IMG/VR virus record: IMGVR_UViG_3300047476_001812
Span: 15,925-79,924 of that record
Length of the DNA stretch: 64,000 nucleotides
Strand: one strand, 5' to 3'
Origin: a virus
Shown here: positions 5,226 to 64,000 of the stretch, piece by piece
How positions within the stretch are numbered: position 1 is the first letter of the stretch
How the letters are laid out: every line of letters begins with the position of its first letter
The notes under the pieces: model-generated
What the model was told of the DNA's origin: nothing
What the model saw: only the letters and a program-made list of their open reading frames with translations
Databases searched by the model: none
Translations under genes and position numbers: made by a program

Positions 5226-5300
5226 GGTTGATACAATATTTACCCTGAGTCATAATTACCTTTAGTTACTTCACCACCACTAAGGCGTTAGCCTTTTTGG

Positions 5301-7742: not shown

Positions 7743-8402
7743 TTAGAACTCATCATCTTTAGCGTCTTTGCTTCCCATTAAGATTACTTTGTTGGCATTA
7801 ATCTTGATACCATTTCTGGGTTCACCAGTGGTCTTGTCTGCCCAAGTTTCAAAGACTAAAGTGCCTTCAATCCCAAGGTTCTCGCCTTTACGGCAATACC
7901 TTTCTATGGCTTCACCCTGCTTATTCCAAGCAGTAATGTTATAGAAATACCCCTTCCTTCTTTCACTAATTAAAAGCGAAGTCTGAATAAAAGATTTGCC
8001 ACTTTCATAGATTCTCTTTTCAGGCATTTTCATCATCTTACCTGCAAGATAAATGGTATTGTAATTGACTTCTGCTTTGACTGGACAGACTGAGTGAGCC
8101 AGGATGTAGGGCTGTTCAATAACTTGTTTAGTTTCTTTATCTTTTTGCTCAGTAAACAATTGACCTGTAACAAGCATTTTCATTCCTGGCTTAAATAAAC
8201 TTAACCTGTCGGAGGTAATGCCAGAAAAGGTTTTGTCGTAGGAGTTATTAAATCCTTTGACGGATATTAAATGCTCTACAGGATTACCGTCTTTGTCAGC
8301 TTGAAGATAACTACACTGGGCAATGGAAAATGGTTGTTGCCCAGGAATGTCAGCAAAGGTTTCTACAAAGTTAACTGTGAGCGTAATGTTGATAATGTTC
8401 AT
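7743..8402 (-). CDS. ssb: single-stranded DNA-binding protein, tandem OB folds
   Basis: C-terminal NTIYLAG...YNITAWNKQGEAIERYCRKG...IEGTL...W and acidic tail DDEF; ATG 8402 lies downstream of hairpin motif 8447-8468. Confidence 0.8.
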   Translation of the reverse strand: MNIINITLTVNFVETFADIPGQQPFSIAQCSYLQADKDGNPVEHLISVKGFNNSYDKTFSGITSDRLSLFKPGMKMLVTGQLFTEQKDKETKQVIEQPYILAHSVCPVKAEVNYNTIYLAGKMMKMPEKRIYESGKSFIQTSLLISERRKGYFYNITAWNKQGEAIERYCRKGENLGIEGTLVFETWADKTTGEPRNGIKINANKVILMGSKDAKDDEF

Positions 8403-8516
8403 GGATTTAATTGGTAAGTGAGTAAAGAGGAAATGCAATAATTTCCTCACAAACATTTAGGCGTTAGCCTGTTGAAATTGTTTTTCAATTTCTTGAATAA
8501 TTGAACTATCAGGAGT

Positions 8517-10153: not shown

Positions 10154-10204
10154 TGTTACTTTTAAGATGCCTCACCACTAAAGGGGCGTTAGCCCCATGT
10201 ATTC

Positions 10205-13200
10205 TTAGTATTTGTTTACCACGCCTTGCTGCTGCCTCCTGTCTTCATCCTGTTGTCTACGGGCGTTAGCAGCTAACCCTAACCACACAGCACCCAGTGT
10301 AGCAGGAATAGCCCATTTAGGAATCTTCATACCACCTGTTATTTTAACTTCAGGGTCTATGGGATTATTGAAAGATTGAGTTCCAGGGGTTCTAGGGGTT
10401 CTAACTTGTTGAGGTTCTGACTGAACCCCTTGCTGTACGTTGGTTTTAGCTTGAGGGGGTATGTAATCCCCAGGAATAGAACCACCATCAAATCCCATAC
10501 CTCCTGAGTCATTAGTAATAGGCATATCCCATATTCCATAGTCAGCATTGCCACCACTTCCGTATTGATAGTTCTCGGAACTGCTGGGAACTATATTAAT
10601 TACCTGATTGCCTGCGGGTACAAATTGTTGAATCACTTTTGACGGATTTGGAATATAATCCCCAGGAATAGAACCACCATCAAACCCCATGCCTCCCAAC
10701 ATACTTTCAGGGTTTCCCATGTAGTCTTCAACAAACTTTACTCTACCTAATTTAGCAACATTAGAAGTGGGAACTGTAGGTAGTTCAACTTTTTGTCGTG
10801 TGCGGTAAGCAGGTAGTAGTCTAGCATTTTGCATAGACCTAATTTGCCGTTCACTAAAATCACCACTTTCTATGGCATCCTGAATATCTTGTGGATGATA
10901 AAGCCTGGATTCATTTAACTCCTGTGCTTGTTCATAGGGTAAATATGTATTAGGTAAACTACCAGTAACGGAAGCAGTTAACTTTTCATCAGGATTATTT
11001 TTATACCTAAAAGAATCGTCTTCAGTCTGCATTCCCAAAGTATTTGCGGCAGAAATAAATGCGTTTAATTGTTGTGGATTCCCTTGTCTTTTGATTACAA
11101 CTTCAGGGGAGTCTTCAATGTTAACTATTGCGTTATGTGCTGCACTAGCACGGTTAATTTCTTCTGCTAAATAGTCAGAGTATTCTTGTAAATCTCTAGG
11201 ACGAGTAGACTGAACAGGAGCTATATCTTTTGTGTTCAATAAAACATCAGAAGCGTTAGGCTGATAATTTCTTATAAACTCAACCCTTTTCGCATCAGAT
11301 AGTGGCAAGATTTCTGGGTTAATACTAAAAGACCTGTCTTGACCAAGGGTTGTATAGTTCCCATCAATAAATGAACTTATTTTTCCATCTAGATTATTAG
11401 CAACTCTCTGTTGTGGAGAGTCTATCAATAAATCTATTTGTGCTTTTTGCTGTAAAGCCCTAAGCCTGTCAATATCAGTCCTTGCCTCTTGTGCTTCTTT
11501 ACCTAGTACATAGGACTTGTATTTTAGAACTTCAATATCACTTTGAGGTTTAGCTACTTGACGTTGTTTTCTGTTACTGATTACTGCATCAATCTGATTT
11601 TTCTTCTGTTGAGTTCTATTAATAGCTCCAAGGATGTCTGTTGGCTCTTCATAACCAGCATTGTAAACTTCTTTCTGATTTAAAATTGCCTTATCATCAG
11701 GACTAATGTAATCATCAGGATTAAAGCTTAGATTGCCACTGATAGCTTGTTCTACTATCCATTCAGGAGTAGGTTCAGATATTCTTGCACCTGCTTTAAA
11801 TGGTAAGTCTATCCTTGCTGCTCTACCTTGACTCCTAGTCTCAGCCATTGCATAATTCCCACCAGCAACAGGATTAAATTCGGCTACAGTAGCTTGTGGG
11901 GTTACATCATAATATTTCCCATCAATTAATATTTTGGCGTTAGCCAAAGCATTATCTCTAGCAAGATTAGGGTTAACATTTGCCCAAGCTTGTATAGCGT
12001 CATCGCTAAAACCTTTTAATTCTAATTCCTCACGTTTGCTTTTAGGTAAATAATTAGTAGTGGCATTATCTAAGTTAAGTGGAACGTAAGCGAATGTGTT
12101 AGCATCCTTCCCTTGAACCTTTCTACCAGATTCTGTAGTGTAGATTTTATCGTCTTTCAGAAAGCCTTGTTCTCCTCCAGCCAATATAGTTCTAGGGGTA
12201 ATAGTTACCGGAAGGTAAGCCCCATCAATTACACCTTGGGGAATTACGCCAGGAATATTTTCTTTCCAGAATGTTAAGTCAGGGCTATCATCATAAGTTG
12301 CTAAGTCTAAATATTGAGTATATTGTGGACTCTCAACACCTGCTGTTCTACTAGGAGTAATAGTGTACTTTCTATCAAATGCAGGTTTAGATTCTCCCTT
12401 CTTTGCTATCTTAATTAAGGCATCAACCTCATCACCACCAAGAACTGCTAATGGTTGTGCAAATAATTCATCAACTTTAGCCCTCTTTTCTTCGGGTGTA
12501 AAAGAACTATCTGCAAGTATAGACTGTCTTTGTTGAACCAAGAAAGGGATTTGCCGCCTCGCCACTTGTGCGGCAATTGCCGCTTGAGTTCTGGGGTTAG
12601 ACTCATCAAGAACCCTAGCTAAACCCACACCTTTGGGTAAAGGGATTTGGTAACTGCTATTTAACCCCACTGTTCTGCTATTAAAGATGGGATTTAATAA
12701 TCCTTTCCTGTCTGCCTCCTCATAACTCATACCATCGGGAATAGGCTGATAGTCAGGAGTTGTACCTTTAAAGTCCCGTACCATTAAGCGAGGTCGAGAT
12801 ACAGATGACTCTATAAATAAAGGGTCGTCATTCTCGTCTAAAACAAGAAATGGATGTGCTTCTCCTCCCCGCATATAGCCTAGTTCATTTATATCTCTTT
12901 CTCGCTGAAAGTTTGCTATTTGTGCTGACCTTGGGAGGGTTAATGGGTTTCCGTATAACGGCGTTAACACTTCTTGAGGAAATCCATACTCATTGGGAAT
13001 TGGTGTTCCGTACTCATTTACCTTATAAGCACCCAAAGGAGTTTCAGGATTGGTTTTAAATCTGTAGAATTTAGTGTTGGTAAAATCTCCAAGGTAGTTA
13101 GCATTGACACCAAATACATCTACAGTTCCAGGCTCATAACCTTCAATTGTTTGTTGCCGTGAAACTTGTAAATTTGCAGGAGTATAAACTGTAGGAGGAT

Positions 13201-16060
13201 TGGGGTTACCAGACTCAGGAACATCAGCTACACTTCTTGACCTTTGATTTAATGATAGGTTTTGCTTTTCCCCATAAATAGGTCTGTTTACTTGGTAAGT
13301 TCCGGTTTTCTGATACCTATCTTCTTTATAAGGAACTACTGCAAAGTTACCATTATCAAGTCCTGTGTTACCCGTTCTAATGTAAACAGTTCTGTTAGGG
13401 TCATAGATAACTTTTCCAGTTCGTGTATCCCTAACAGTTTGTGGGGAATTAGAATAAAACTCACTTGCTGGAGTAAAGTTATTTATACCTTTTGCGGCTG
13501 GAGCATTGCTAGGAACATCAACAACAATTCCATCAGTATTAAAAGCTAATCTGCCACCAAGATAATCTGTTTCTTGAAGTGATGGATATGCAGATGTGGC
13601 ATTGGTATCTTGATATCCTGTAGGTGCAGAAACTGTTATAGAATTCCCAGAATTAAATATTGTAGTTTCTCCTCTTTCTGGAACAAAATTTCTTCTGAGT
13701 TGCAAGTTTCCAGCAGCATCATAATCCAGATAAGGTGAAATATTCATATTAGCAGGTGCTTTTCTAACTTCAGCAGTTCTTCTGCCACCTCTAGCTAAAT
13801 CAAGAGCATCCATTGATTGTCCACTACTTTCGGCATTAGCGTTAAAGTAGTTGAATAAATCTTGTGGGTTATTATCGTCTACCCACTTTCTAGCAACAGG
13901 CTTAAAAGCATTCCTGCTTGCTTCCCCAAGCAATTGAACATTAGGAGGTTTGGGAGTTCCCATTCTTTTATCCCAAATCTCAATAAAATTGTCAGTAGGA
14001 ATTGGATTTCCTTCTTTGTCTAAAACAGCGTATTGACTGTAATCAACCCTAGGTTCAATAGCTTCAGGTTGTAAAGTTTCTGGATTAACTAAATTCCCGG
14101 TGTGAACATATTTATTAATTGTCTCACCTGTAATTGGATTAATAGCAGGAACAGGTCTAGTAAATGCTTCTAACCCTGGATTAGTAGGGTCTTCCCTGAT
14201 AATGTCAACTAAGTTATCTCTACCACCTTCTCTCATCGCTCGGTTAATGTCAGTTATTTCCTGAGCAAGATTAGTAGTTTGTTTTCTAATAGGTAGCCCA
14301 CCAGACTCCTCACTTACTGCGGGTCTTACTAAATAAAACCCACCATTTTGAGTAACATTAAAAACCTCTTTTGTTAGAGGATTCATGTAAGTAGCACGGT
14401 AGTTTTTTCCTTGATTATCTGTAGTCTCATAGAGTTTTATATTATCTCTATTAAAACTATCCATGTTACTAGCAGGAATGAACTTAGTTTGAGCAGCTTG
14501 ATTAATATAATTATTGTATTGCTCAGGACTAATTAGTTGACGTTTAACTGCATCCTCAAAGGTAACTAATTCATTACCAAGACCATCAACTCTAGGAATA
14601 GAAATACTTGGGATTGCATTGCCTTCTTTGTCACCTGTATAAACAATAGTAGTTGGAGTTCCCCTGCCTTTACTAAACACCCTCTGATTAGTTTCTTTAT
14701 CTATCCAAGTATTAGGTAGTTTAATAGAACCAGCATTATTTAAGAACCCACCTTGTCCTATCCTGGACATTACTTCTGGAGAGTATTCTTGTCCTACCCC
14801 TGCTATTGTTGGTGCTATGCCAATAGTTCTAGGATAGGGAACTGAATTGTCTCTATTAGCAATGTAACTAGCAGTACCAAAAAACCTACCTTCACCATCA
14901 GTTATTTGATTACCTACTTCTTGCTGTTGTTGAATATAGGCTCTTTCTTTGTCTCTATTCCATTGTCTATCAATTAAATATTGTCTAGCTTGTGGAGAGA
15001 GATTAGTGTACTCAGCTAAAGTGGAATTATTTTTAATAGCTAAAGGTGCGTGCCATTTATATTGGCTATTATTATTGCTCGACAATGGTGTTGATTGGTA
15101 AGACACTCCTGGAGTAGTAGGAGTAAATTGATTACCTTGTTGAATAAAAAAGTTGCTATCACCTGCAAATTCAGGGTTTTGATTGACTTCAAATCCTATA
15201 CTTGATTGTATTGATGGTACAGGAATAAAATTACTTTGTTCACCTTGAATTAAATTAGGAATTTCTAATTTAGTAGGAATAGTTCTACCACCGCTAATCA
15301 ACTTTTGAGTAACGCCAGTGGCAGGGTTAAAAACTAACCCTCTGTTATAGTCATAAACTAAACCAGTTAGCAAATCTGTTTTAATACCAACTGGTTTAGG
15401 TATAGGAATATTCGGAATATTTGCAGTTCTATTTTCTCTATCTTCTAATACATTGAACTGATATTTCTCACCTTGTGCTTTAGGCGTTTGAATCCCAGCA
15501 GTTCTATTAGTATTTACAGGAACAACGGTAGGATTAACACCTGAATCCTCACCCCTTATAAACGCTAACGCCCATCTCTCATAATCATTTCTTGGTTGCC
15601 AATTAGAGTCTTGTGCAATAGCATTCTGGACACCTGCTATATCTAACGGTGCTTGTGAAGCTCCAGTGCTTTTTTGACTAACCGCTGATGGGATATAAGC
15701 TGAATCATCTAATAAATCGTAATTAAAATCGTCATAACTTCCAGGAGCAGCATCGTAGATTCCATCATCAAAGTTAGTATAGTTGCCAACGTTAGCTGTT
15801 CTGGGTTCTTGAGATTGTTGAACTTCTGGACTAACGTACCTACCTAAACTACTAAGTACGGCTTCTTGAGTAGCATTCATAGCAGGGCTAGTTACAGCTT
15901 TGGCTAATCTATCTGCTACAATTCTTTTTTTATCTTGTTCAGTTTGCCCCTGTCTAAACATAAAGTTTCCACCAACTAAATCAGGGAATGATTGGTTGAT
16001 GAAAGCATTTAATTGTCCAGGAGTCATCTGAGATACTAAATACTCAATTTCATTATTCAT
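10205..16060 (-). CDS. 1951-aa protein, probable internal virion/ejection protein with C-terminal hydrophobic segment
   Basis: Long uninterrupted N/Q/P-rich ORF; C-terminal WAIPATLGAVWLGLAA; duplicated GGMGFDGGSIPGDYIP; function inferred only. Confidence 0.6.
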   Translation of the reverse strand: MNNEIEYLVSQMTPGQLNAFINQSFPDLVGGNFMFRQGQTEQDKKRIVADRLAKAVTSPAMNATQEAVLSSLGRYVSPEVQQSQEPRTANVGNYTNFDDGIYDAAPGSYDDFNYDLLDDSAYIPSAVSQKSTGASQAPLDIAGVQNAIAQDSNWQPRNDYERWALAFIRGEDSGVNPTVVPVNTNRTAGIQTPKAQGEKYQFNVLEDRENRTANIPNIPIPKPVGIKTDLLTGLVYDYNRGLVFNPATGVTQKLISGGRTIPTKLEIPNLIQGEQSNFIPVPSIQSSIGFEVNQNPEFAGDSNFFIQQGNQFTPTTPGVSYQSTPLSSNNNSQYKWHAPLAIKNNSTLAEYTNLSPQARQYLIDRQWNRDKERAYIQQQQEVGNQITDGEGRFFGTASYIANRDNSVPYPRTIGIAPTIAGVGQEYSPEVMSRIGQGGFLNNAGSIKLPNTWIDKETNQRVFSKGRGTPTTIVYTGDKEGNAIPSISIPRVDGLGNELVTFEDAVKRQLISPEQYNNYINQAAQTKFIPASNMDSFNRDNIKLYETTDNQGKNYRATYMNPLTKEVFNVTQNGGFYLVRPAVSEESGGLPIRKQTTNLAQEITDINRAMREGGRDNLVDIIREDPTNPGLEAFTRPVPAINPITGETINKYVHTGNLVNPETLQPEAIEPRVDYSQYAVLDKEGNPIPTDNFIEIWDKRMGTPKPPNVQLLGEASRNAFKPVARKWVDDNNPQDLFNYFNANAESSGQSMDALDLARGGRRTAEVRKAPANMNISPYLDYDAAGNLQLRRNFVPERGETTIFNSGNSITVSAPTGYQDTNATSAYPSLQETDYLGGRLAFNTDGIVVDVPSNAPAAKGINNFTPASEFYSNSPQTVRDTRTGKVIYDPNRTVYIRTGNTGLDNGNFAVVPYKEDRYQKTGTYQVNRPIYGEKQNLSLNQRSRSVADVPESGNPNPPTVYTPANLQVSRQQTIEGYEPGTVDVFGVNANYLGDFTNTKFYRFKTNPETPLGAYKVNEYGTPIPNEYGFPQEVLTPLYGNPLTLPRSAQIANFQRERDINELGYMRGGEAHPFLVLDENDDPLFIESSVSRPRLMVRDFKGTTPDYQPIPDGMSYEEADRKGLLNPIFNSRTVGLNSSYQIPLPKGVGLARVLDESNPRTQAAIAAQVARRQIPFLVQQRQSILADSSFTPEEKRAKVDELFAQPLAVLGGDEVDALIKIAKKGESKPAFDRKYTITPSRTAGVESPQYTQYLDLATYDDSPDLTFWKENIPGVIPQGVIDGAYLPVTITPRTILAGGEQGFLKDDKIYTTESGRKVQGKDANTFAYVPLNLDNATTNYLPKSKREELELKGFSDDAIQAWANVNPNLARDNALANAKILIDGKYYDVTPQATVAEFNPVAGGNYAMAETRSQGRAARIDLPFKAGARISEPTPEWIVEQAISGNLSFNPDDYISPDDKAILNQKEVYNAGYEEPTDILGAINRTQQKKNQIDAVISNRKQRQVAKPQSDIEVLKYKSYVLGKEAQEARTDIDRLRALQQKAQIDLLIDSPQQRVANNLDGKISSFIDGNYTTLGQDRSFSINPEILPLSDAKRVEFIRNYQPNASDVLLNTKDIAPVQSTRPRDLQEYSDYLAEEINRASAAHNAIVNIEDSPEVVIKRQGNPQQLNAFISAANTLGMQTEDDSFRYKNNPDEKLTASVTGSLPNTYLPYEQAQELNESRLYHPQDIQDAIESGDFSERQIRSMQNARLLPAYRTRQKVELPTVPTSNVAKLGRVKFVEDYMGNPESMLGGMGFDGGSIPGDYIPNPSKVIQQFVPAGNQVINIVPSSSENYQYGSGGNADYGIWDMPITNDSGGMGFDGGSIPGDYIPPQAKTNVQQGVQSEPQQVRTPRTPGTQSFNNPIDPEVKITGGMKIPKWAIPATLGAVWLGLAANARRQQDEDRRQQQGVVNKY
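10464..10696. repeat. two ~41-bp imperfect direct repeats in the giant ORF (10464-10504, 10656-10696)
   Basis: TAATCCCCAGGAATAGAACCACCATCAAA.CCCAT.CCTCC twice. Confidence 0.85.
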
Positions 16061-16302: not shown

Positions 16303-18729
16303 CTACTTCACAACGTAAGCTTCGTTGTAACTTGGATGTCCTACGTTATTAAATCTTGTGTGAAGATGAACCGTAATTTCATCTCCTAATTTAATAGGTG
16401 GCGTGTCCTTAACTGGGACTACACCAATGCTATAGCCATTGGACTTAGCAATGAAGTAATGCTTGCCGTCATTACCAATGCCTGACTCAATCTTCATGAC
16501 AATAGCCTCACCTTTGAAGACTATTTCACGAAAATCTGAATATAGCCGTCCTACTATATTCAGTTTGTCAATTTTGAGAGTCTTAAGTTGTTCACATATC
16601 TGTTCTATACCTAATAGAAAACAGATATTAGTTGAGATGCCTACCCTGTCCTCATGCTCCTTTGCTTGAGGATTGGGAATCCCCGTTTTGTTGTTCCGGT
16701 GTTTGACATCCCAAAAGGCAGCCACAGCCATCATCCTCTGTGTAGGGGGTAAATGATTAAGTATTCCCTCATAGTATCTGCAGATATCTTTTTGAGAAGA
16801 TAACCTACGCTCTTTAATAATTCTGGGAACTCTCTTACCTGGATTATCTTCTTCCCACTTGCGCTGCTCTAATCCAGCAGCATACATGGCAGATGAGTAT
16901 TCGGAAGACACGACTTCTGCCCTCTCAATCCATTTCTTACTAGGATTGAGATGTGAGAAAAGAATGTTAAAAGGTCTGAGATTGGTAGCCTTAAGTTCTG
17001 GGTAAACCCAAAACTTATTTATTTCAGCTACAAGCAGTCCTACGGTATCATTAGGACGTGATGACATCTGGGATGACATATAGCAGTCGTCATTTTTGAC
17101 CTGCTTCAACCAATCAACTCTTTCAGACTTGAGAGCATTACCGATATCATCTAGCAACTTCCTGTTAGGTGGTGTAGCACCTTTGAGGGAGTCTACTGCC
17201 GCTTGCAGCTGCGGCACTAACTGAAATACAAAGTCCTCACGTTTACAAGCCCAGGATTTGGCTATGTAGTATGTGATAAGACCAGTCAAGTTTTCCATTG
17301 ACTTAACCAGGATTTGCCCTAGAGTCCCTTCAATGGGAATCTTCTTAGGTTTTAACCCTGCTTGGTCTAAGTCAGGTTCACCGAAGTTCTTGACTGCCTG
17401 AGCTACGTTAGGTAGAGTTGATGCAGGTAGCCACATAAGGAAATCCCCATCTGTGTCACGCCCCAGTTTCATTAAGGTATTGCAGTTACCTACAATAATC
17501 CCCTCCATCTGCTCCCATTTAGGCAAGACTTTATTTGTCCATACCTTAATATCATATTTCCATCTACAAGGATAGGGGAATACGATTACCTCTTCACCGT
17601 CAGGAAGTCCTGGGATATAACAGCAGTCATCTGGCAACTCCTCGTCTGGCATTACCATAGAGGAGTTAAATTTCATCCCACCAGATGTAGCTATCTCGCG
17701 CCACCGTCGGGATAGCATTCCCATAGTTGCCTTGATAACCCAAGGGTGGGTAGACAACTGACCGTGTACGTCAGACTTTAAAATCTGACTTAACCGAGAT
17801 TCACTAACCTCACTAAACTCCTCGCTTTCATCCCCTTTCCGCAGGAGATACGCTAACAATTTCTGAGGATTGTTGACTAAGATATTTAACTCCTGTGCTC
17901 TCATTTGCGCTACGGGAACTATATCTTTCTGTACACAATCCCAAGGAAGGAACTGTACTACTGAGTATGAAAGATTGGACTTACGGAAGTCCCACCCCAT
18001 TGCATACCGTTCAATAATCTCGGTATCAGTCTCTTCGACCTCAATAAGTCTGGACTTTCTAGACGGAGATTTAAACACCACACCAAAAGCCAATTTAGGA
18101 AGTGTATACTCCCCAGGTTTAACTTTATTGCCTTTGAAACAGGACGTAGGTAAAACAAGGTCATACTTACCTTTCTTAAACCCCACTGCAATTGTACCCT
18201 TTGCACACCAATCAGGGTACATATTGAAAGCCCTAAACTGGAATGGATTGAATATGGAATCCACAAACTCCATAGCAAACTTCTCAGAGCATTTCCCGTG
18301 GCAATCCCCAGTCCTATATTTCTTGGACTTGGCATCACCGTCATTAACAACTAAGAGTTTGATGGCAATATCCTTAATCAACTTACATTCAGTAGTCAGG
18401 TTAGAACCGTAGTTGGCAGCATTCATATTGCTACCAAAGAATCGAGTAAAGCAATTAAGTTCTGAGGTAGAATAGATTGCTTTACCTTCTTTCCTAGAGC
18501 CTGAACCACCAACTAATACATAGTCTTCAAAGCCTTTGTCAAGAACTTCAGAGATGTATTCTAAGTCAGGATTTTCATCAGCTAATAAACTACCCACATC
18601 ACCGATAGCAAACTTAACGTCAGGGAATAGATGCCCCAACATCGTATTGTGATATGTGCTTTGGCAATGCTCTGGTAGCCACTGTTGACTAACTAGGTCG
18701 TATTGCCTTAGAATAAGCTTAGATGGCAT
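16303..18729 (-). CDS. single-subunit two-barrel RNA polymerase, YonO / cellular RdRP (QDE-1)-like
   Basis: Ordered motifs GDCHGKCS, PFQFR...AKGT, LVLPTSCFKG, VIVFPYPC, catalytic GRDTDGDF, LTGLIT, QAAVDSLKG parallel the cellular RdRP motifs DGxGxIS, FQIR..KG, RNP, DxDGD, AVDxxKxG. Confidence 0.85.
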   Translation of the reverse strand: MPSKLILRQYDLVSQQWLPEHCQSTYHNTMLGHLFPDVKFAIGDVGSLLADENPDLEYISEVLDKGFEDYVLVGGSGSRKEGKAIYSTSELNCFTRFFGSNMNAANYGSNLTTECKLIKDIAIKLLVVNDGDAKSKKYRTGDCHGKCSEKFAMEFVDSIFNPFQFRAFNMYPDWCAKGTIAVGFKKGKYDLVLPTSCFKGNKVKPGEYTLPKLAFGVVFKSPSRKSRLIEVEETDTEIIERYAMGWDFRKSNLSYSVVQFLPWDCVQKDIVPVAQMRAQELNILVNNPQKLLAYLLRKGDESEEFSEVSESRLSQILKSDVHGQLSTHPWVIKATMGMLSRRWREIATSGGMKFNSSMVMPDEELPDDCCYIPGLPDGEEVIVFPYPCRWKYDIKVWTNKVLPKWEQMEGIIVGNCNTLMKLGRDTDGDFLMWLPASTLPNVAQAVKNFGEPDLDQAGLKPKKIPIEGTLGQILVKSMENLTGLITYYIAKSWACKREDFVFQLVPQLQAAVDSLKGATPPNRKLLDDIGNALKSERVDWLKQVKNDDCYMSSQMSSRPNDTVGLLVAEINKFWVYPELKATNLRPFNILFSHLNPSKKWIERAEVVSSEYSSAMYAAGLEQRKWEEDNPGKRVPRIIKERRLSSQKDICRYYEGILNHLPPTQRMMAVAAFWDVKHRNNKTGIPNPQAKEHEDRVGISTNICFLLGIEQICEQLKTLKIDKLNIVGRLYSDFREIVFKGEAIVMKIESGIGNDGKHYFIAKSNGYSIGVVPVKDTPPIKLGDEITVHLHTRFNNVGHPSYNEAYVVK

Positions 18730-18756: not shown

Positions 18757-18874
18757 AAAACCCCCTAGTAGACAGCGACCAAACTAACTACTAAGGGGTT
18801 TTTGTTTAAATCTGCACGAAGTGAACATAAAAATAACTCACTTCAATTCAACCTAAGTCAAATCAAAGTGAGTT
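18757..18874 (-). promoter_or_regulatory. two stem-loops in the leader of the RNA polymerase gene
   Basis: AAAACCCCCTAGTAG...CTACTAAGGGGTTTT (~18757-18803) and AACTCACTT...AAGTGAGTT (~18835-18874). Confidence 0.55.
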
Positions 18875-18913
18875 AGTTCAATCCTATTTAGGCGTTAGCC
18901 TATTGATTCTGCA

Positions 18914-19096
18914 TCATCTGCATAAATAATAATCTATTCCCAGTGATAAACTCACAGCATTCCAAAATTCGCCCCATGCAAGAGCCTCACTGTGATGGAA
19001 ATTTGTTAGTCGGAACTTCCCTTCCCTCGTTCCTCTCCAATACACGGCAATACCTTCTTCTGTTTTTTCGACAAAAGGTTTTTGTTCTGCTTTCAT
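18914..19096 (-). CDS. hypothetical protein
   Basis: 60-aa ORF directly downstream of hairpin motif 19115-19136. Confidence 0.6.
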   Translation of the reverse strand: MKAEQKPFVEKTEEGIAVYWRGTREGKFRLTNFHHSEALAWGEFWNAVSLSLGIDYYLCR

Positions 19097-19131
19097 AACT
19101 TAACTCAAATTAACTCAAAACTGATTAGGCG

Positions 19132-19305
19132 TTAGCCTTGTTCAGTTTGAGGGCGCAAGGTGCATTGAAATTTCAATGCAAAAGCCCTTGCAGCCTTATA
19201 ATTTTTACATTCTGCTACCCTGCCATCAGGGTAGACAATATGCCATTCTGTCGCATTTAAGATAACATCCGGAGGAATGTTATCTTGTGGACTATAATAA
19301 ATCAT
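19132..19305 (-). CDS. 57-aa hypothetical protein
   Basis: Manual translation MIYYSPQDNIPPDVILNATEWHIVYPDGRVAECKNYKAARAFALKFQCTLRPQTEQG; GGGAG RBS; stop codon lies in the hairpin loop. Confidence 0.55.
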   Translation of the reverse strand: MIYYSPQDNIPPDVILNATEWHIVYPDGRVAECKNYKAARAFALKFQCTLRPQTEQG

Positions 19306-19607
19306 TAACAAGAAACTCCCTTTCTGTGTACAAAAAGCTTCTCATTAATTTTAAACTACAGTCGTTTAAATGGAAACATTTCGCGAGATATTTTCTGTCA
19401 ATTCCCTCGTCGCTATCATTAACTACAAGTACAAAAATAGGTGCGTAGCACCCCATAAAAAAACTCTTCACTCCTAATCCCAAAAGAATACTAACTCCGA
19501 AGGAACTAAAACTACGACTAGGGAGCGTAGCGACCCATAAAAACTTTCTTTAGTTTAAACCTGAGTTATGTTATTATTTAAAGCAAGCAAAATAAACTAA
19601 GTTTACC

Positions 19608-20448: not shown

Positions 20449-20754
20449 CTTCTTTTGCTAAATACCCTAAGTTTATTTTTCTCAATCATAATTACTTCAC
20501 AAATTACTTCACTATTAATGGGGCAATCGCCCCTATACTTTTGATGGTTTAACTACCGAATCCAAGCAACGCATTTACTGGAAAATCTATTTTCTTTTTT
20601 ATATTGTTGTTATTAGCTTGTGTGTCTAATCTAATTGCACTAGGGGCAACTAAATATCTATTATCAAGTTGTTGTTTTTTCATAACTCACCTGTTTATTT
20701 TGCCGAATATATTATACCATAGAGCAAGCAAAATAAACAGTGGTTGGTTAAATA

Positions 20755-21744
20755 ATGGAACTAAATAAATCTACGGAACTGAGCAACAGCTTGGGAATAG
20801 CTATTGTTAATAGGAATACAGACTTAGCTAAATCAGTTATAACGGAACTGTCAGATTTGGAAGAAACTCATTTAGCTAAGATAACTTCTAGGGTTAGAGA
20901 GAATATATCTAATGAAGAATGGTCTTGGTTTCAATCACTTCTTAATGATGGGAACGAGAGTAAACCTGTAGCTCCGTTGGCTGATGAAGATAAGGAATTA
21001 AAACAAAAATTAGAAACAAGAATTATAGAGAACACAAAAAGGTTTTTTATAGACACAGGCAGGGATTTATATATTCTCAAGCAGAGAAAACTTTATCGTG
21101 AACAATACAATAGTTGGCAGTCTTATTGTCAACTAAGTTTAGGCATTAATCCTACTACCGCAAGTAGAGCTATTAAGGCATATCAAGATTGTGAAAGTAT
21201 TCGCATTTACTTTAATGATGATACCTTGCTTCCTAAAACAGATTATGTTCTTAGATTATTAGGACAAATAAAAGATGTAGAGTTAAGAGCTAATGTGTGG
21301 CGTAAAGCTTTAGAAGATTGTGGTAATTCACCCACTACCTCAGACATTAGAAGGGTATATGCTGAGATAATTAACCCTGAAGTTAAACCACCTAAGCCTA
21401 ATAACTTAGAATTTAAAGTTGGTGATTTTGTATCTATAAAAGAATCCTGCATTAAGTGGGGTAAAGTAATTGAGATTACATCAGGATTAAGATACAAAAT
21501 TAAGTCAGGAGATATCACTTCAACATACCAGACTTATCAAGTAACTGAATTAGAAATACCTCTGTTTATTGCTGAGGCAGTAGAACAACTTTATCAATCT
21601 CATTCACCTAAATTAAATACAAATACTCTACTGAGTGACAATCACCCTCATACAAAATCTATTGCCACTACATTTTATGGGTATAACGAATTTGCTGATT
21701 GGCAAATATCTTTGTTAGGGAGTCTAAGAAGCTTATGTCAATAG
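20755..21744 (+). CDS. DUF3102-like DNA-binding protein with C-terminal KOW-like motif
   Basis: FIDTGRDLYILKQRKLYREQYNSWQSYC...ASRAIKA; FKVGDFVSI. Confidence 0.6.
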   Translation: MELNKSTELSNSLGIAIVNRNTDLAKSVITELSDLEETHLAKITSRVRENISNEEWSWFQSLLNDGNESKPVAPLADEDKELKQKLETRIIENTKRFFIDTGRDLYILKQRKLYREQYNSWQSYCQLSLGINPTTASRAIKAYQDCESIRIYFNDDTLLPKTDYVLRLLGQIKDVELRANVWRKALEDCGNSPTTSDIRRVYAEIINPEVKPPKPNNLEFKVGDFVSIKESCIKWGKVIEITSGLRYKIKSGDITSTYQTYQVTELEIPLFIAEAVEQLYQSHSPKLNTNTLLSDNHPHTKSIATTFYGYNEFADWQISLLGSLRSLCQ

Positions 21745-22361
21745 AACTCTTCAGGAAGTATCAACAAACAAAGTCTATTGCTATTAGAAATAAATTGGTA
21801 ATGCTCAATGAAGGATTAGCTTATAAAGCTGCACATACAGCTAAGTTATACTGCAATGAAAGTTTTGATGACTTATCACAAGAAGCGTTTATAGGATTGA
21901 TTAGAGCGGTGGAAGACTATGACCCCTATAAAGGAACTATGTTTTCTTCCTACGCAGTCCCTAGAATATCAGGAAAGATATTGCAATATCTTAGAGATAG
22001 GTCTAAGTTAATTAGGCTTAGTCAGTCAATGCAAAAGTTAATAGCAGACATTAAAAGGATAAGCAAACAATCAATTACTGTAGAGGAAATATGTAGACAA
22101 TTAAATATTACTCAGGAAGAATATCAACTAGCTATTGGTGCTTATGCTGCATCTACTCATCTTCATTCTATTGATGATGATAGTGATGATAGAAAACCAC
22201 TAGAGTTACCATCACATGATAATCAAATAGAGGAAAGTAAAGTATTCAAAGTTGATTACAGCAATGCTACTAATGAGGAACTGAAATCTCTTACTAGTGG
22301 TGATTTAAATGTTAGAAGTATTTGGTTAATGGCAAGTAATTGGATTAAAGAAGAAGGATAA
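21735..22361 (+). CDS. phage RNA polymerase sigma factor, group 3 (SigF/SigB-like), apparently without region 4
   Basis: IRNKLVMLNEGL, DDLSQEAFIGLIRAVEDYDPYKGTMFSSYAVPRISGKILQYLRD (region 2), ITVEEICRQLNI (region 3). Confidence 0.88.
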   Translation: MSIELFRKYQQTKSIAIRNKLVMLNEGLAYKAAHTAKLYCNESFDDLSQEAFIGLIRAVEDYDPYKGTMFSSYAVPRISGKILQYLRDRSKLIRLSQSMQKLIADIKRISKQSITVEEICRQLNITQEEYQLAIGAYAASTHLHSIDDDSDDRKPLELPSHDNQIEESKVFKVDYSNATNEELKSLTSGDLNVRSIWLMASNWIKEEG

Positions 22362-22362
22362 T

Positions 22363-24324
22363 ATGACATTTAGGATACCAACACTTACATCTGCTGATGA
22401 CGTTGCTGTATGGTTGAGTGGGGCAAAACAACAGCTTGATGATTACTTTGTTCAGCTACCCGCTTCTCATTATGATGAGTTTTTCTCGCATCTTCCTGCC
22501 GCTGAACAATTAGTAGAAGCACAGGCAATGAGAAATGCAGAACAAAAAAACTATTTGCTAGAAATAGAAAGACAAGCTAAAAGATTTGGGTACAAACCAG
22601 AAAGAAGAAGAGTTGAAGAAGCAGTATCAGGTGGTGACATAGATACGGAATTTGTTCCTGAAAATGCTCCAGTTAATTCTCAAGCACGTTCTGCTAAAGC
22701 TCCTCAAGGTGCAATCCGAATTGAAGGTGATATTTTTATGCCTTTAGAAGAAGAGCAAGCAATGAGAGAGCAGTTCAGAGGAAAAGGAAATGCTTTCTTT
22801 GATGAATTAAAAAAGAGAGGGTTAATTCAAGTATTAACTCCTGAAGGAAATAGGGTAGTTCCAAAGAAGTATGCAATTTTTGATGAAACACTAGGAGAAA
22901 GAGGTAGGTATACTCTCAAGCCTGAAGTCCAATCGTATTTAGAATCCAGGAAAGTCAATACTCCTCAAGGTGTAGTAAGTCAACCCATTGCTGAAACCCC
23001 TCTTGTACAATCGTCTCCTCTTCCCAATAATGCTGAATCCGAAGCAACCTTAAATGATTTAGATAATCTCTTTTTAAACTCACAAACTCAACCTACCCCC
23101 CAAGAAGTTCCGGGAACTGTAACAACTATCTCTACAGATAATGGGGCAATTGCCCCAGACGTTGTGAGCGTATTATCAACACAGCCGGGGTTTAGTGTAG
23201 TTCCAGAACCCGTATCTTATAGCCCACTACCCATACCAGAAGGAACTCCTGAGAGTGGTATTAATCGTAGTGTTTACCCTGGAAGTAAAGCTGTATCTAC
23301 TTCTTCCGGTATTCCTATGAGTGGAGGTGGTGGGAGTATTCCCCCTAAACCCCCCACAGGTGGTGGTAACTATGACTTTGATGGGGAAGAGTTTAACCGT
23401 CAGAATAACTACACTCCTTACGGTGGCACACCCAACCATCCAGAAATACCAGGATTAAATGACCCTGTAGATGCTGACGCAAATCTTAAATGGTTATGGG
23501 AAAGAAATCAACGAGAAACGCAAGCCCGTCAACAATATCTAAACGACAAGGCAAGACAAGTGGCTGATACTGGTAGTTGGTGGGGGAATGTATGGGATGG
23601 AGTTGGTAGAGGTTTTAATTATTCTGTTGAAGCTGGCAGAATGCCTGGTAGAACGGCATCTGTAATATGGAATCGCGCACCTAAAAAAGAATATGAACAT
23701 CTTACTCCTGAAGGTAAAGCAGCTTTTTTTGGTGGCAGGGTTGCTGGAGAAATAGGTAATGGAACTAAACAAGTATTATGGGAACTACATCCTGATGACT
23801 TTACCGCTACCCATTCTGTAAGAGCAGTTAGAGAGTCCGGTGGTAATCGTATAGCTCAAGTTTTGATACCTTATATGACAACAACCGCATTGCAGCTAGG
23901 GTCACAAACCTATAACCCATTTAACCTGGGTGAAGGCGGTAGGGTTGCAGGATATCAAGCTATTAATCCTGATGAGGATGACCCACGTATTTCTACATCA
24001 CCAGTGAGTGAGTTATTAATTGACAGAGGATTGTTAGGTAGAAGAGGTAAGCTACTTCCTTGGGAGCAATTTAGACAAGAAAGAACTGATATCCCCTATG
24101 AACAGTATCAGAAGTATCAAGACTATTTACGTAATAAAGATGATAACTTCCTAAGAGATGCTACCGGGGGACTAATTAAGGGGACTATGGATGGAATTAA
24201 TGGACCAGAGTTGTCAGTGATGGGTTATTCTGTCACACCTACTGGGGCGTTAGCCGCCGGGGCTGCACTGTTAGCGGGTAGGGAATTAGTTAGAACAGGA
24301 AGAATAGCAGGGTTAAGGAAGTAA
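22363..24324 (+). CDS. probable virion (internal) protein
   Basis: 653 aa, Pro/Gly-rich linker, C-terminal hydrophobic helix; first of a coupled gene run. Confidence 0.55.
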   Translation: MTFRIPTLTSADDVAVWLSGAKQQLDDYFVQLPASHYDEFFSHLPAAEQLVEAQAMRNAEQKNYLLEIERQAKRFGYKPERRRVEEAVSGGDIDTEFVPENAPVNSQARSAKAPQGAIRIEGDIFMPLEEEQAMREQFRGKGNAFFDELKKRGLIQVLTPEGNRVVPKKYAIFDETLGERGRYTLKPEVQSYLESRKVNTPQGVVSQPIAETPLVQSSPLPNNAESEATLNDLDNLFLNSQTQPTPQEVPGTVTTISTDNGAIAPDVVSVLSTQPGFSVVPEPVSYSPLPIPEGTPESGINRSVYPGSKAVSTSSGIPMSGGGGSIPPKPPTGGGNYDFDGEEFNRQNNYTPYGGTPNHPEIPGLNDPVDADANLKWLWERNQRETQARQQYLNDKARQVADTGSWWGNVWDGVGRGFNYSVEAGRMPGRTASVIWNRAPKKEYEHLTPEGKAAFFGGRVAGEIGNGTKQVLWELHPDDFTATHSVRAVRESGGNRIAQVLIPYMTTTALQLGSQTYNPFNLGEGGRVAGYQAINPDEDDPRISTSPVSELLIDRGLLGRRGKLLPWEQFRQERTDIPYEQYQKYQDYLRNKDDNFLRDATGGLIKGTMDGINGPELSVMGYSVTPTGALAAGAALLAGRELVRTGRIAGLRK

Positions 24325-34720: not shown

Positions 34721-35440
34721 TTAAACCTTGCTTTCTGCAATAAGCCAATTAATGGCTTTTACAATGCTGTTTCCGTGACAGTCTAAGGGTTCACAGAAAC
34801 AGATTAATCTGACATTGACACCTGACTTAACAAGCAAAGCAATACGTTTTAACTCATTCCAAACTGAGTTTTGGGCGTCAGGTTCACGCCATGCAATTTG
34901 CATCTGCTTCCAAAGCCATCTGTGATACAAGTCACAAACAGTTTTTCTGGTATGTTCACCACCCATAGGGTATGGATTCCCTAAAACACTAGGTCTACCA
35001 ATGTAAATATCGGTATAACCAAGCTCAGGAGAAAGTGTTTTCTTATTGACAACTTTGATGTTGCCAACCTTGAAAGTTTGAATCACTTTTGTTTTGGGAA
35101 CACGCTTGATATTTTCAGCAGTCCCTTTGCTAAATCCGTCCCAAATAGCTAAACCAAAGTCAGCTTGAGAACACATAAACTTATCTCTGTCAGTATAACT
35201 GCCATCAACTTTAACTGTACAAAAGCCAGCATTATTTCTTGGCTTTTGATAAGCATGAAAAACAGTTACCGCTTTATAATCTTTGGACTTCAGATATTGC
35301 TGAACTAAGAGGTCAATTCCGGGAGCATCTCCAACAAGAATCTCAAATCTTTGCTCCATGATTTTATCTAAAGACTTAATAACGTCTTTAGGTAAAACAG
35401 GTATTGAACGGCTGCCAGAAATTACTACTTTCATAGCCAA
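34721..35440 (-). CDS. SLOG/YspA-like domain fused to DUF4326
   Basis: KVVISGSRSI...LVGDAPGID...AIWDGFSKGT; IYIGRPSVLGNPY...LICFCEPLDCHG. Confidence 0.8.
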   Translation of the reverse strand: MAMKVVISGSRSIPVLPKDVIKSLDKIMEQRFEILVGDAPGIDLLVQQYLKSKDYKAVTVFHAYQKPRNNAGFCTVKVDGSYTDRDKFMCSQADFGLAIWDGFSKGTAENIKRVPKTKVIQTFKVGNIKVVNKKTLSPELGYTDIYIGRPSVLGNPYPMGGEHTRKTVCDLYHRWLWKQMQIAWREPDAQNSVWNELKRIALLVKSGVNVRLICFCEPLDCHGNSIVKAINWLIAESKV

Positions 35441-35796: not shown

Positions 35797-36228
35797 CTAA
35801 ATTTGAACTATTACTGCATTTGGGCAGTGAGTTCGTATCAAGTTGCCGACTACATTCCAACCCCCACCAGCTAAACCACATCCCATTTTATAGGGAAGAT
35901 ATGGGGTTAACCCTAACTCAATGGATTTAGTGTGAAGTTTATTGAGGCAAACCGTCAAAGCATCATAATCAGTTTGACGTTTACCAATCCCATAGCCATT
36001 TTGACCTGCCATGTTGCAAATATATAAACCAGGATTGACCTTTACAAACTGCACCATTCCAAGGAGGAATTTACCCTCCTTGCAATACTTGGAATAGGAG
36101 GTAAAGCAAACTGGGTATTTTTCTCGCAGGGATTTAGCTAACCCCGCACCCATCACGCCCTTGCAATTAACTTGATGGCAAATAATGCCAGATTCAATTG
36201 TTAACAAATTACCTTTGATTAATTCCAT
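35797..36228 (-). CDS. macro domain protein (ADP-ribose binding/hydrolase)
   Basis: IKGNLL, ICHQVNCKGVMGAGLA, PYKMGCGLAGGGW. Confidence 0.92.
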   Translation of the reverse strand: MELIKGNLLTIESGIICHQVNCKGVMGAGLAKSLREKYPVCFTSYSKYCKEGKFLLGMVQFVKVNPGLYICNMAGQNGYGIGKRQTDYDALTVCLNKLHTKSIELGLTPYLPYKMGCGLAGGGWNVVGNLIRTHCPNAVIVQI

Positions 36229-39943: not shown

Positions 39944-40366
39944 CTATAACTGCAAGGCTGCAATCAGCTCAGACTTTCGCATACTACCGTATTTGGGTAT
40001 AGCCCTTTCCTTGGCTATAATTTTGAGTTCTTTGACAGTTAAAGAGTTGTAATCTAAGTCCTTGCACTTAGATTGCTCAAATTGAGCATCTAAGGTCTCC
40101 CAAAGCTTGTCACCAGGGTTTGGAAGCTTAGGAGTCATTTGTTCTTTAGCCAATTCAATTACATTTATTTCAGGTTCAGACTCTTGGGAGTCTAAAGTAA
40201 CTTGAACCCAAGAAATGTCGGCAACTTTTAAAGTCTGTTGCTGAGTTCCAATTAATTGGTGTCCAGCGTTATTCCAGATTGTTTCCATATCCAAAATAAA
40301 GTCTGCGGTCATGCAAGCAAACAATGCAACTATTAAAACCAAGCAGAAAAAGACTGAGTAATCCAT
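39944..40366 (-). CDS. membrane-anchored protein with C-terminal Rho-N (HeH) domain
   Basis: N-terminal hydrophobic helix; LTVKELKIIAKERAIPKYGSMRKSELIAAL. Confidence 0.75.
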   Translation of the reverse strand: MDYSVFFCLVLIVALFACMTADFILDMETIWNNAGHQLIGTQQQTLKVADISWVQVTLDSQESEPEINVIELAKEQMTPKLPNPGDKLWETLDAQFEQSKCKDLDYNSLTVKELKIIAKERAIPKYGSMRKSELIAALQL

Positions 40367-43016: not shown

Positions 43017-43105
43017 AAATCACAAATTACAAACATCACCACTTCTAAGGCGTTAGCCTTTGTAATAGGAAAACTACTGCAAGCAAAACAAATACAGGAT
43101 TTAAA

Positions 43106-63617: not shown

Positions 63618-63934
63618 TTGATTTTAACTGAACCACCAGCATTGATTGATTTCCCGATGTGACCACTTGCTTCTAAGCTACCGCCGCAATTAACTGAGCC
63701 TTCAACGTTATTACATTGGACAGAGCCGCCAGCCTCCAAATTGCCTTGAATGTTTTTGCATTCAACACTTGCATCAGTTCTAAGTGAGGCTAAATCACCA
63801 TCCCATTGAATCTTTATATTACCAGAAAGTCCACTAATTACTGTATTGCCATTGACGGTAATAACGCCGTTGACAATACTAACATTGCCGCCGGAGACTT
63901 CAAAGGTTTGTCCGTTCACTTTTATTTTGTTCAC
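63614..63934 (-). CDS. small beta-helix-like protein (antisense cassette)
   Basis: Repeated G(N/S)V/GGSV units; GGAG RBS; hairpin motif at 63961-63982. Confidence 0.7.
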   Translation of the reverse strand: MNKIKVNGQTFEVSGGNVSIVNGVITVNGNTVISGLSGNIKIQWDGDLASLRTDASVECKNIQGNLEAGGSVQCNNVEGSVNCGGSLEASGHIGKSINAGGSVKIN

Positions 63935-64000
63935 TTGAATACTCCACTAATTTATTTACATCATCACTACTAGTGCGTTAGCCCTTACTAGGAATATTAT

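Follow-up and report, generated by a model that had tools for sequence, protein, structure and literature searches.

The DNA analysed here, a window of 64,000 nucleotides (nt) covering positions 15,925 to 79,924 of the IMG/VR virus record IMGVR_UViG_3300047476_001812, carries on its minus strand a gene of 808 codons. The gene sits in a minus-strand block of DNA-metabolism genes, together with those for a single-stranded DNA-binding protein (SSB), a UvrD-like helicase and DnaB, and outside the structural block. Its product, P0001, had been proposed from the letters alone to be a single-chain polymerase in a cyanophage, of the kind represented by cellular RNA-dependent RNA polymerases (RdRPs) and by YonO of phage SPbeta. 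Family profiles, Pfam matches of homologues, the predicted fold and structure searches all support this assignment, and they place P0001 among the single-chain, two-barrel RNA polymerases, in the clade that includes QDE-1, RDR1/2/6, YonO, crAss-like gp66 and Thermus phage gp64/gp96. The gene and the domains of its product are located as follows.

16303..18729, minus strand: polymerase gene, 808 codons, protein P0001; defined by the open reading frame (ORF) and its translation, homologues, an AlphaFold2 model and structure searches.
18070..18312, minus strand: first double-psi beta-barrel (DPBB-B, beta-like), residues ~140-220, with GDCHG, QFR, AKGT and SCFKG; from invariant columns in alignments of 33 and 69 sequences, aligned to the Q-I-R / KG block of RDR2.
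17425..17673, minus strand: second double-psi barrel (DPBB-A, beta′-like), residues ~353-435, with the DTDGD metal-binding loop at its end; aligned to GGDLDGD of RDR2 and GGDYDGD of QDE-1.
16306..16572, minus strand: C-terminal beta-domain of ~90 residues (~720-808), beyond the region common to any solved polymerase and specific to the phage subgroup.

The polymerase and its predicted fold

The polymerase frame opens with an ATG at 18729, preceded by GGAG 11 nt on its 5′ side, and ends with a stop codon at 16303-16305. Some gene calls begin at M30 instead, and we prefer the 808-residue form because residues 1-29 are kept at 40-50% identity and form confident strands in the model. Along the protein the motifs follow the order GDCHG, QFR, AKGT and SxFKG, then PYPCRWxxDI and GRDxDGD, and finally a C-terminal AAFWxxxH block. 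Profile alignment shows this series to be colinear with RDR2 of Arabidopsis and maize, which bears out the original prediction of an ordered set of cellular RdRP motifs. The predicted DTDGD loop occupies residues 425-429 (nt 17443-17457), inside GRDTDGDFLMW, and both the 808-residue frame and the loop are confirmed by the translation and by conservation in 69 homologues. An alignment of these 69 sequences is the basis of the conservation figures, the family profile and the AlphaFold2 model. Five residues (K177, G178, S196, K199 and D427) are invariant in it, and a further ten (D142, Q164, F165, R166, D425, G428, D429, Q509, D513 and K516) are conserved in at least 90% of sequences. Members of the superfamily share a pair of basic residues in the beta-like barrel (PMC7824862), and by analogy we infer that K177 and K199 are the conserved basic active-site pair of that barrel. 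The second barrel would supply the Mg-binding DTDGD loop and the first the two invariant lysines, together forming one active site.

Relatives of P0001 numbered 54 in a word-indexed search and 270 cluster representatives in an exhaustive one (E ≤ 1e-3). The polymerase relationship is revealed only by profiles and structure, since searches with the single sequence were empty: P0001 found noise only among Protein Data Bank (PDB) sequences, no tblastn match in 50,697 INPHARED phage records and nothing in a BLASTP comparison with YonO. Its one PHROG match is to the unnamed PHROG 34895 (E 1.7e-28). Searched against PDB sequences, the family profile retrieves maize RDR2 (7w82, E 1e-7), Arabidopsis RDR2 (7roz, E 2.5e-5), QDE-1 (2j7n, E 9e-3) and the polymerase part of P23-45 gp96 (E 0.01). 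Each of these matches comprises three ordered blocks, namely the first barrel, the second barrel with the DxDGD loop, and a C-terminal helical block, and the DTDGD loop aligns to DLDGD in RDR2 and to DYDGD in QDE-1. The Pfam RdRP family, PF05183, is matched at E < 1 by 9 of 33 homologues (best 1.2e-5), and one homologue, P0028, has a precomputed match to it. A neighbouring ESM Atlas cluster of 517 members, mostly cyanobacterial, is auto-named 'RNA dependent RNA polymerase domain-containing protein', and in a second, viral cluster PF05183 is present in 46% of members. When the 69-sequence alignment was compared by hhalign with YonO (sequence from NC_001884), the motif order matched over 387 columns with a probability of 28% and an E value of 6e-4. 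The proposed kinship with YonO is therefore probably real but remote, with gp64/gp62 and RDR2/QDE-1 the nearer structures.

The AlphaFold2 model computed from the 69-sequence alignment (mean predicted local distance difference test score, pLDDT, 89.8; predicted template modelling score 0.87) predicts two double-psi barrel domains in one chain, that is, a two-barrel RNA polymerase fold. In Foldseek searches of the PDB the top matches were maize RDR2 (E 4.6e-15), QDE-1 (E 7.8e-14; template modelling score, TM, 0.56) and Arabidopsis RDR2. They were followed by Thermus phage P32 gp64 and P74 gp62 (~1e-9), P23-45 gp96, crAss-like gp66, whose match is weak (E 2.7e-5, TM 0.27), and the largest subunits of multisubunit polymerases. 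VIA-align ranked gp62 and gp64 highest, with Z 23.7 for 8f5m (root-mean-square deviation 5.2; 513 residues aligned) and Z 23.5 for 8f72 (5.5; 520 aligned), next to maize RDR2 at 23.2, QDE-1 at ~19, gp96 at 13 and beta′-type subunits at ~11. The double-psi barrel fold expected under the original prediction is thus predicted, with Z scores of 19-24 against gp62/gp64, RDR2 and QDE-1. These matches cover residues 1-720 of the model, which aligns to residues 371-1111 of RDR2 and ~488-1338 of QDE-1, and for residues ~335-571 the largest subunits of multisubunit enzymes are also a structural match (Z ~11). Matches in BFVD are phage proteins named RNA-dependent RNA polymerase, as well as P23-45 gp64. 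The crab-claw, two-barrel architecture of gp64/gp62 is matched, with top Z scores tied with that of RDR2, and the colinear catalytic core of cellular RdRPs is present both as profile blocks and as 595-609 structurally aligned residues. P0001 is therefore structurally tied between Thermus gp64/gp62 and RDR2/QDE-1, and by sequence it is nearest to RDR2/QDE-1.

The C-terminal domain is kept in the relatives L002-L005 and L010 and, folded alone, gives a pLDDT of 70.9. An S1, OB or HIRAN fold was considered for it and rejected, as matches reached Z ≤ 5.5, which is below noise, and its fold is not assignable.

Some members of the family are interrupted. Two homologues, P0056 and P0057, are N-terminal halves that break at residues 428/429, within the DxDG|D loop, and seven others (P0058, P0062, P0066, P0081, P0102, P0115 and P0144) are C-terminal halves beginning at the same place, which suggests that an intron or intein may occupy the most conserved site of some relatives. 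In Microcoleus sp. SVA1_B3 (L045:661-2071) an insertion of ~1.4 kb with a 380-residue ORF lies near the AKGT motif (residues ~153-179) of the polymerase gene. Rfam searches of L045 and L079 found no intron family.

Genome, host range and neighbouring genes

The source record is 79,924 bp long and its ends overlap: positions 1-191 correspond to 79735-79924 (window 63811-64000) over ~190 bp with one mismatch zone. As the last ~190 bp repeat the first ~190 bp, the genome is probably complete at ~79.7 kb; the record's own flags describe it as linear and 57% complete. Recognised genes encode a DnaB-type helicase, a UvrD-type helicase, an SSB (7743-8456), a dCTP deaminase, a protein resembling PNK-phosphatase, a terminase, a portal-like protein and a sigma-70-family factor, and from the terminase, portal, DnaB, SSB and UvrD genes the virus is a tailed phage with double-stranded DNA (dsDNA). 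Two large ORFs, of 653 residues (22363-24324) and 851 residues (61062-63617), have no family matches. Among cultured phages the portal-like protein matches Synechococcus phage S-EIV1 alone (KJ410740.1; 37.6% identity), a cyanophage from an arctic lake. The S-EIV1 genome, at 79,178 bp, is also of matching size, and the virus is probably a freshwater cyanophage of the S-EIV1 lineage. S-EIV1 itself is without the polymerase family, a Sigma70_r2 match, or the class A and class B motifs described below; the polymerase, the sigma factor and the motifs have the appearance of a single package that may have been gained or lost as a unit.

When one genome per prokaryotic species was scanned, relatives of the polymerase at 24-37% identity appeared at 75 chromosomal loci. 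Nearly all are labelled cyanobacteria, with a few 'uncultured bacterium' bins and no other named phylum, and the named hosts include Microcoleus, Lyngbya, Planktothrix, Scytonema, Tolypothrix and Crocosphaera. The cyanobacterial HIP1 octamer is abundant in related loci. One Microcoleus locus is prophage-like, as genes for a C5 methylase, RNase H, an HU-like protein, ATP-dependent ligases and a collagen-repeat protein surround the polymerase gene. YonO-like proteins in cyanobacteria have been noted before, with reference to earlier work (PMC5467207).

Two neighbours of the polymerase gene recur with it.

21699..22361, plus strand: phage sigma-70-family factor, second gene of the divergent plus-strand unit (Pfam Sigma70_r2, E 1.3e-14; PHROG 351, E 2e-30).
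10205..16060, minus strand: ORF of 1951 residues directly downstream of the polymerase gene, probably co-transcribed with it; the adjacency is conserved.

Five related viral contigs, reaching down to 47% identity (L006), keep the polymerase gene followed by the giant ORF, and in the same five the divergent plus-strand unit on the 5′ side of the polymerase encodes a 329-residue protein, the sigma factor and the 653-residue protein. The more distant L008 (25% identity) retains the sigma factor and the 653-residue protein and has a 1521-residue ORF after the polymerase. Polymerase and sigma factor thus occur together in L002-L006 and L008, and the predicted coexistence with a phage sigma factor holds in relatives down to 25% identity. 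In L009 the gene immediately ahead of the polymerase gene encodes an SSB. The record to which L009 belongs, G004, is a complete 67.5-kb phage genome with a distant polymerase relative; it also contains a weak Sigma70_r2 match (22 bits; G004:C1:48635-48814) inside an open frame of 2942 residues.

The 1951-residue product is rich in N, Q, P and G, contains a duplicated GGMGFDGGSIPGDYIP segment and has a membrane-like stretch at its C terminus. It has no match in Pfam, PHROG or the ESM Atlas and no DxDxD, and its homologues are unnamed and found within this phage group only. A scan for DxD[GAS]D across all ORFs of the 79.9-kb record, the 1951-residue neighbour included, revealed no second two-barrel enzyme, none of the matches outside P0001 being in a polymerase-like setting. 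The DDDSD of the sigma factor was considered as a second catalytic loop and dismissed as an acidic linker.

A further ORF at 34721-35440 on the minus strand encodes 239 residues, the C-terminal half of which is DUF4326. Counterparts of its N-terminal 120 residues (~50% identity) lie close to the polymerase gene, mostly within ~4-8 kb, at 24 of 26 cyanobacterial loci; at the remaining two only the DUF4326 half matches. At an Aerosakkonema locus (L017, 4072-4942) two paralogues of this protein are encoded, each behind a class B-like GCTAACGC-N10-TTGA.

Repeated signals upstream of genes

Class B elements consist of a GC-TAAC-GC mini-hairpin (other loops are rare), a spacer of 10 nt and a DTGR box. 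The record contains 36 copies on the minus strand, among them those at 5271-5292 and 10172-10193, against ~0.7 expected for the core, and the 10-nt spacer to the box is found in 24 of the 36. Stem extensions covary (agGC/GCct, ggGC/GCcc, tgGC/GCca, atGC/GCat). The elements have one orientation, with the box a median of 34 nt on the 5′ side of minus-strand start codons, and they precede most of the minus-strand DNA-metabolism genes. In G001, the complete 75.7-kb genome of L006, whose polymerase is 47% identical, the same hairpin, GGCTAACGCC, is followed after 9 nt by [GT]TGA in 11 of 20 copies, and the step from 10 to 9 nt reads as a concerted shift of geometry by one base between lineages. In a pattern scan of IMG/VR, arrays with several class B copies were confined to contigs of this polymerase-bearing group. 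No repeated motif is abundant in the distant relative G004, whose genome is complete.

Class A elements comprise a T-run, a hairpin with the triloop core GCTACGC, and a GTAGTT box. There are 13-14 copies on the minus strand, of which 12 lie in an array of small genes at 32.5-42.6 kb, one of them around 35754, and two at 19449 and 19531; none was found in G001. Read by eye, GTAGTT mostly falls ~16-18 nt past the GCTACGC core (a script tally also took earlier TA matches). This core-to-box distance is that usually found between the -35 and -10 elements of sigma-70-type promoters, and the spacing of class A appears sigma-like; the sequences TAGTTT and TAGTTA are compatible with TAnnnT. Two of the small minus-strand genes in the class A array, at 39944-40366 and 35797-36228, encode a Rho_N/SAP domain (E 4e-8) and a weak match to a Macro domain (E 1e-3), respectively.

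A third exact motif, GCAAGCAAAAYAAA, is present on the plus strand at 19583-19596, 20724-20737 and 43079-43092, in each case 12-25 nt before a start. It heads three plus-strand units, those of the dCTP deaminase, the sigma-factor operon and the head of the structural block, and may represent a third class of promoter or leader.

Both class A and class B are found in the region leading into the polymerase gene.

19421..19547 (approximate), minus strand: two class A elements at the head of a ~900-nt region leading into the polymerase gene (motif scan).
19115..19136, minus strand: class B element, 18 nt before a 60-codon ORF at 18914-19096 (motif scan and distance table).
18878..18899, minus strand: class B element (GC-TAAC-GC-N10-TTGA), 148 nt upstream of the polymerase ATG; kept in L002-L005.
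18757..18875, minus strand: structured leader, two hairpin and T-run structures with a 14-codon mini-ORF between them (terminator-like scan, RNA fold).

Over these ~900 nt the order is two class A elements, a 59-codon ORF, the class B element at 19115-19136, the 60-codon ORF, the class B element at 18878-18899, a 19-bp hairpin, the 14-codon mini-ORF and a second hairpin. The first hairpin of the leader, with its T-run, spans 18834-18875; the second is long, is likewise followed by a T-run (18757-18802) and ends 28 nt before the ATG. The leader RNA folds at -61.7 kcal/mol (z -6.95 relative to shuffles), and it is kept in four close relatives (L002-L005), with changes from G:U to A:U pairs in L004. 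A class B motif had been reported upstream of the gene at 18878, and an exact GC-TAAC-GC-N10-TTGA is indeed there. The positive autoregulation that it had suggested is possible and finds no support: the median distance of such elements is 34 nt, but this one stands 148 nt from the ATG and is separated from it by two terminator-like hairpins.

Probable function and comparison with known systems

The most likely function of P0001, and in our judgment a probable one, is DNA-dependent transcription of part of the phage genome. Every characterised phage member of the clade is DNA-dependent, namely YonO (PMC5467207), gp64 and gp96 (PMC10770324), and gp66, which prefers single-stranded DNA (ssDNA) (bioRxiv 10.1101/2020.03.07.982082). 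Work cited in the last of these reports found that QDE-1-type enzymes transcribe ssDNA far more robustly than RNA and that QDE-1 works with RPA and a helicase. From these precedents and the dsDNA genome of a tailed phage we infer the DNA template, from the position of the gene in the minus-strand DNA-metabolism block, away from the structural block, its non-virion status, and from motif geometry the promoter class.

We propose that the polymerase would be made early in infection and would serve one portion of the phage genome without the host enzyme; the phage sigma factor would redirect the host core polymerase to another set of genes. With a spacer of 10 nt, too short for -35/-10 geometry, class B is unlike a sigma-type promoter, and its spacing resembles that of the compact promoters of single-chain phage polymerases. 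We tentatively assign the class B elements to the phage polymerase, which may act on locally unwound DNA and be assisted by the phage's SSB and UvrD-like helicase, both encoded in the same block as the polymerase; the preference of the clade for ssDNA fits both a hairpin or unwound-DNA signal and the nearby SSB and helicase genes. Class A elements would be read by the sigma holoenzyme, and the late plus-strand units by the host core with the phage sigma factor. That an RdRP-clade polymerase, by sequence one of the closest prokaryotic relatives of the eukaryotic RNA interference (RNAi) polymerases, reads promoters of this kind, mini-hairpins of fixed geometry on locally single-stranded DNA with SSB and helicase, is a possibility that we regard as rather doubtful.

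Several observations count against the identification of P0001 or the function and promoter assignments proposed for it. By itself P0001 matches no Pfam family even at E ≤ 10 and does not reach the score of the Pfam RdRP family. Phyletic patterns leave it undecided which enzyme reads class A and which class B, because polymerase and sigma factor always co-occur in the informative genomes and S-EIV1 is without both. The polymerase gene itself stands behind class A and class B elements, so that either one class is read by another enzyme, for example that of the host, or the polymerase is injected. No common motif was found upstream of the early transcripts made by gp66, and sequence-specific promoters are thus not a feature of the whole clade (bioRxiv 10.1101/2020.03.07.982082). 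Parts of the region are represented in two freshwater metatranscriptome runs and one unlabelled run as low-depth contigs only, which reveal neither transcript starts nor strand and may derive from DNA carry-over.

Other roles for the enzyme have to be weighed against transcription of the phage genome. It could instead be a polymerase that primes replication, providing RNA primers or opening an origin by transcription for a phage with its own DnaB-type helicase and SSB. Such a role would suit a gene in the same block as SSB, the UvrD-like helicase and DnaB, the SSB homologue directly upstream of the polymerase in L009, and the ssDNA preference of enzymes of the clade (bioRxiv 10.1101/2020.03.07.982082). 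In its favour, too, none of the ~46 larger ORFs scanned has a recognisable DNA polymerase or primase domain, but these are less than the full ORF set, and unannotated ORFs could hide a primase. Since the candidate elements lie 10-60 nt before the starts of ~30 genes, all in the sense orientation, they form a pattern of gene expression and not of origins, and the characterised phage homologues are all transcriptases; we consider priming unlikely. An archaeal PolD-like DNA polymerase was also considered, as no DNA polymerase of any kind is recognisable in the genome, and was set aside as a leading idea because the close structural and sequence relatives of P0001 are all RNA polymerases.

The polymerase might alternatively be delivered with the virion and injected together with the DNA, like crAss gp66, P23-45 gp96 or the virion RNA polymerase of N4. 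Injection would remove the difficulty of how expression could begin when the only signals ahead of the polymerase gene are the phage-specific class A and class B elements, and the conserved downstream ORF of 1951 residues, with its C-terminal membrane-like segment, is reminiscent of ejection or tape-measure proteins. That ORF has no detectable homology to such proteins, however, and lacks DxDxD; the polymerase gene lies on the other strand, far away from the structural module, its 808-residue product is without extra domains, unlike the fused virion enzymes, and its best structural matches include the non-virion gp64/gp62. Virion delivery seems to us quite unlikely. Least probable, and in our view very improbable, is a true RNA-dependent RNA polymerase that copies phage or host transcripts into antisense or dsRNA, for example in regulation or counter-defence. 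The nearest solved relatives by profile are the eukaryotic RDR2 and QDE-1, and homologues carry the auto-assigned name 'RNA dependent RNA polymerase domain-containing protein'; the C-terminal barrel is weakly like an S1/OB RNA-binding domain, but that match is below noise (Z ≤ 5.5). QDE-1-type enzymes are reported to work much better on ssDNA, and no partner genes of the Dicer or Argonaute type were seen among the ORFs scanned. We know of no demonstrated RNA-dependent enzyme among the prokaryotic and phage members of the clade.

Single-chain two-barrel enzymes are considered similar to the ancestor of all cellular RNA polymerases and to the source of the eukaryotic polymerases of RNAi. Few have been studied, to our knowledge (YonO, gp66, gp64/gp96 and QDE-1/RDRs), and how they find promoters is largely obscure. 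The enzyme class to which P0001 belongs is a known one; this cyanophage branch of it is new and uncharacterised, and means that a widespread freshwater lineage related to S-EIV1 carries its own transcription machinery. The polymerase is compact, at 808 residues, and modelled with high confidence, and no phage enzyme of solved structure comes as close to plant and fungal RdRPs by sequence. Its gene lies in a small, probably complete genome that also has two very regular families of candidate promoters and a phage sigma factor. Although the phage is uncultured, the pairing of polymerase and signal is open to direct tests in vitro, using a synthesised gene and short pieces of DNA as template. If the proposal is correct, the phage would follow a three-tier programme, using its own polymerase, its own sigma factor and the host polymerase, and would offer a tractable bacterial-virus model for the way in which QDE-1-type enzymes engage ssDNA.

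Among known systems the best structural match is the enzyme of Thermus phages P23-45 (gp64) and P74-26 (gp62) (PDB 8f72, 8f5m), which, like P0001, is a compact, single-chain, two-barrel phage RNA polymerase. The gene for gp64 lies among the early genes, and the enzyme recognises a phage-specific promoter motif and works alongside the host polymerase (PMC10770324). By sequence the family profile found neither gp64 nor gp62 in the PDB at E ≤ 1, gp64 is shorter (~590 residues) and lacks the C-terminal beta-domain, and the host phyla differ. P23-45 also encodes another polymerase, a virion enzyme joined to the tape measure; no second two-barrel enzyme was seen here. QDE-1 and RDR2 (PF05183; 2j7n, 7w82, 7roz) are the closest solved relatives by profile, with ~600 residues superposed at Z 19-23; in comparison with them, P0001 is without the eukaryotic N-terminal extensions, and its gene belongs to a dsDNA phage in which no RNAi partners were seen among the ORFs scanned.

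YonO of SPbeta, at 839 residues, is a phage single-chain, two-barrel RNA polymerase of similar length and works beside the host polymerase. It transcribes one late operon of structural and lysis genes (PMC5467207), whereas here the polymerase gene is in the DNA-metabolism block and candidate promoters precede many genes of early or middle type. The gp66 protein of crAss-like phage phi14:2 (PDB 6vr4) belongs to the same clade and is a phage transcriptase with a QDE-1-like core, but it is a virion protein of 2180 residues and a much weaker structural match. With the virion RNA polymerase of coliphage N4 the analogy is functional only and depends on class B being a promoter: both would use a small DNA hairpin at a fixed distance from the start together with an SSB, a likeness that rests on motif geometry. 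The N4 enzyme belongs to the T7-like single-subunit family, which is unrelated to the two-barrel enzymes, and we know of no two-barrel enzyme that uses hairpin promoters. Should class B elements be read as we tentatively suggest, a promoter logic like that of N4 would have evolved independently in an unrelated polymerase superfamily.

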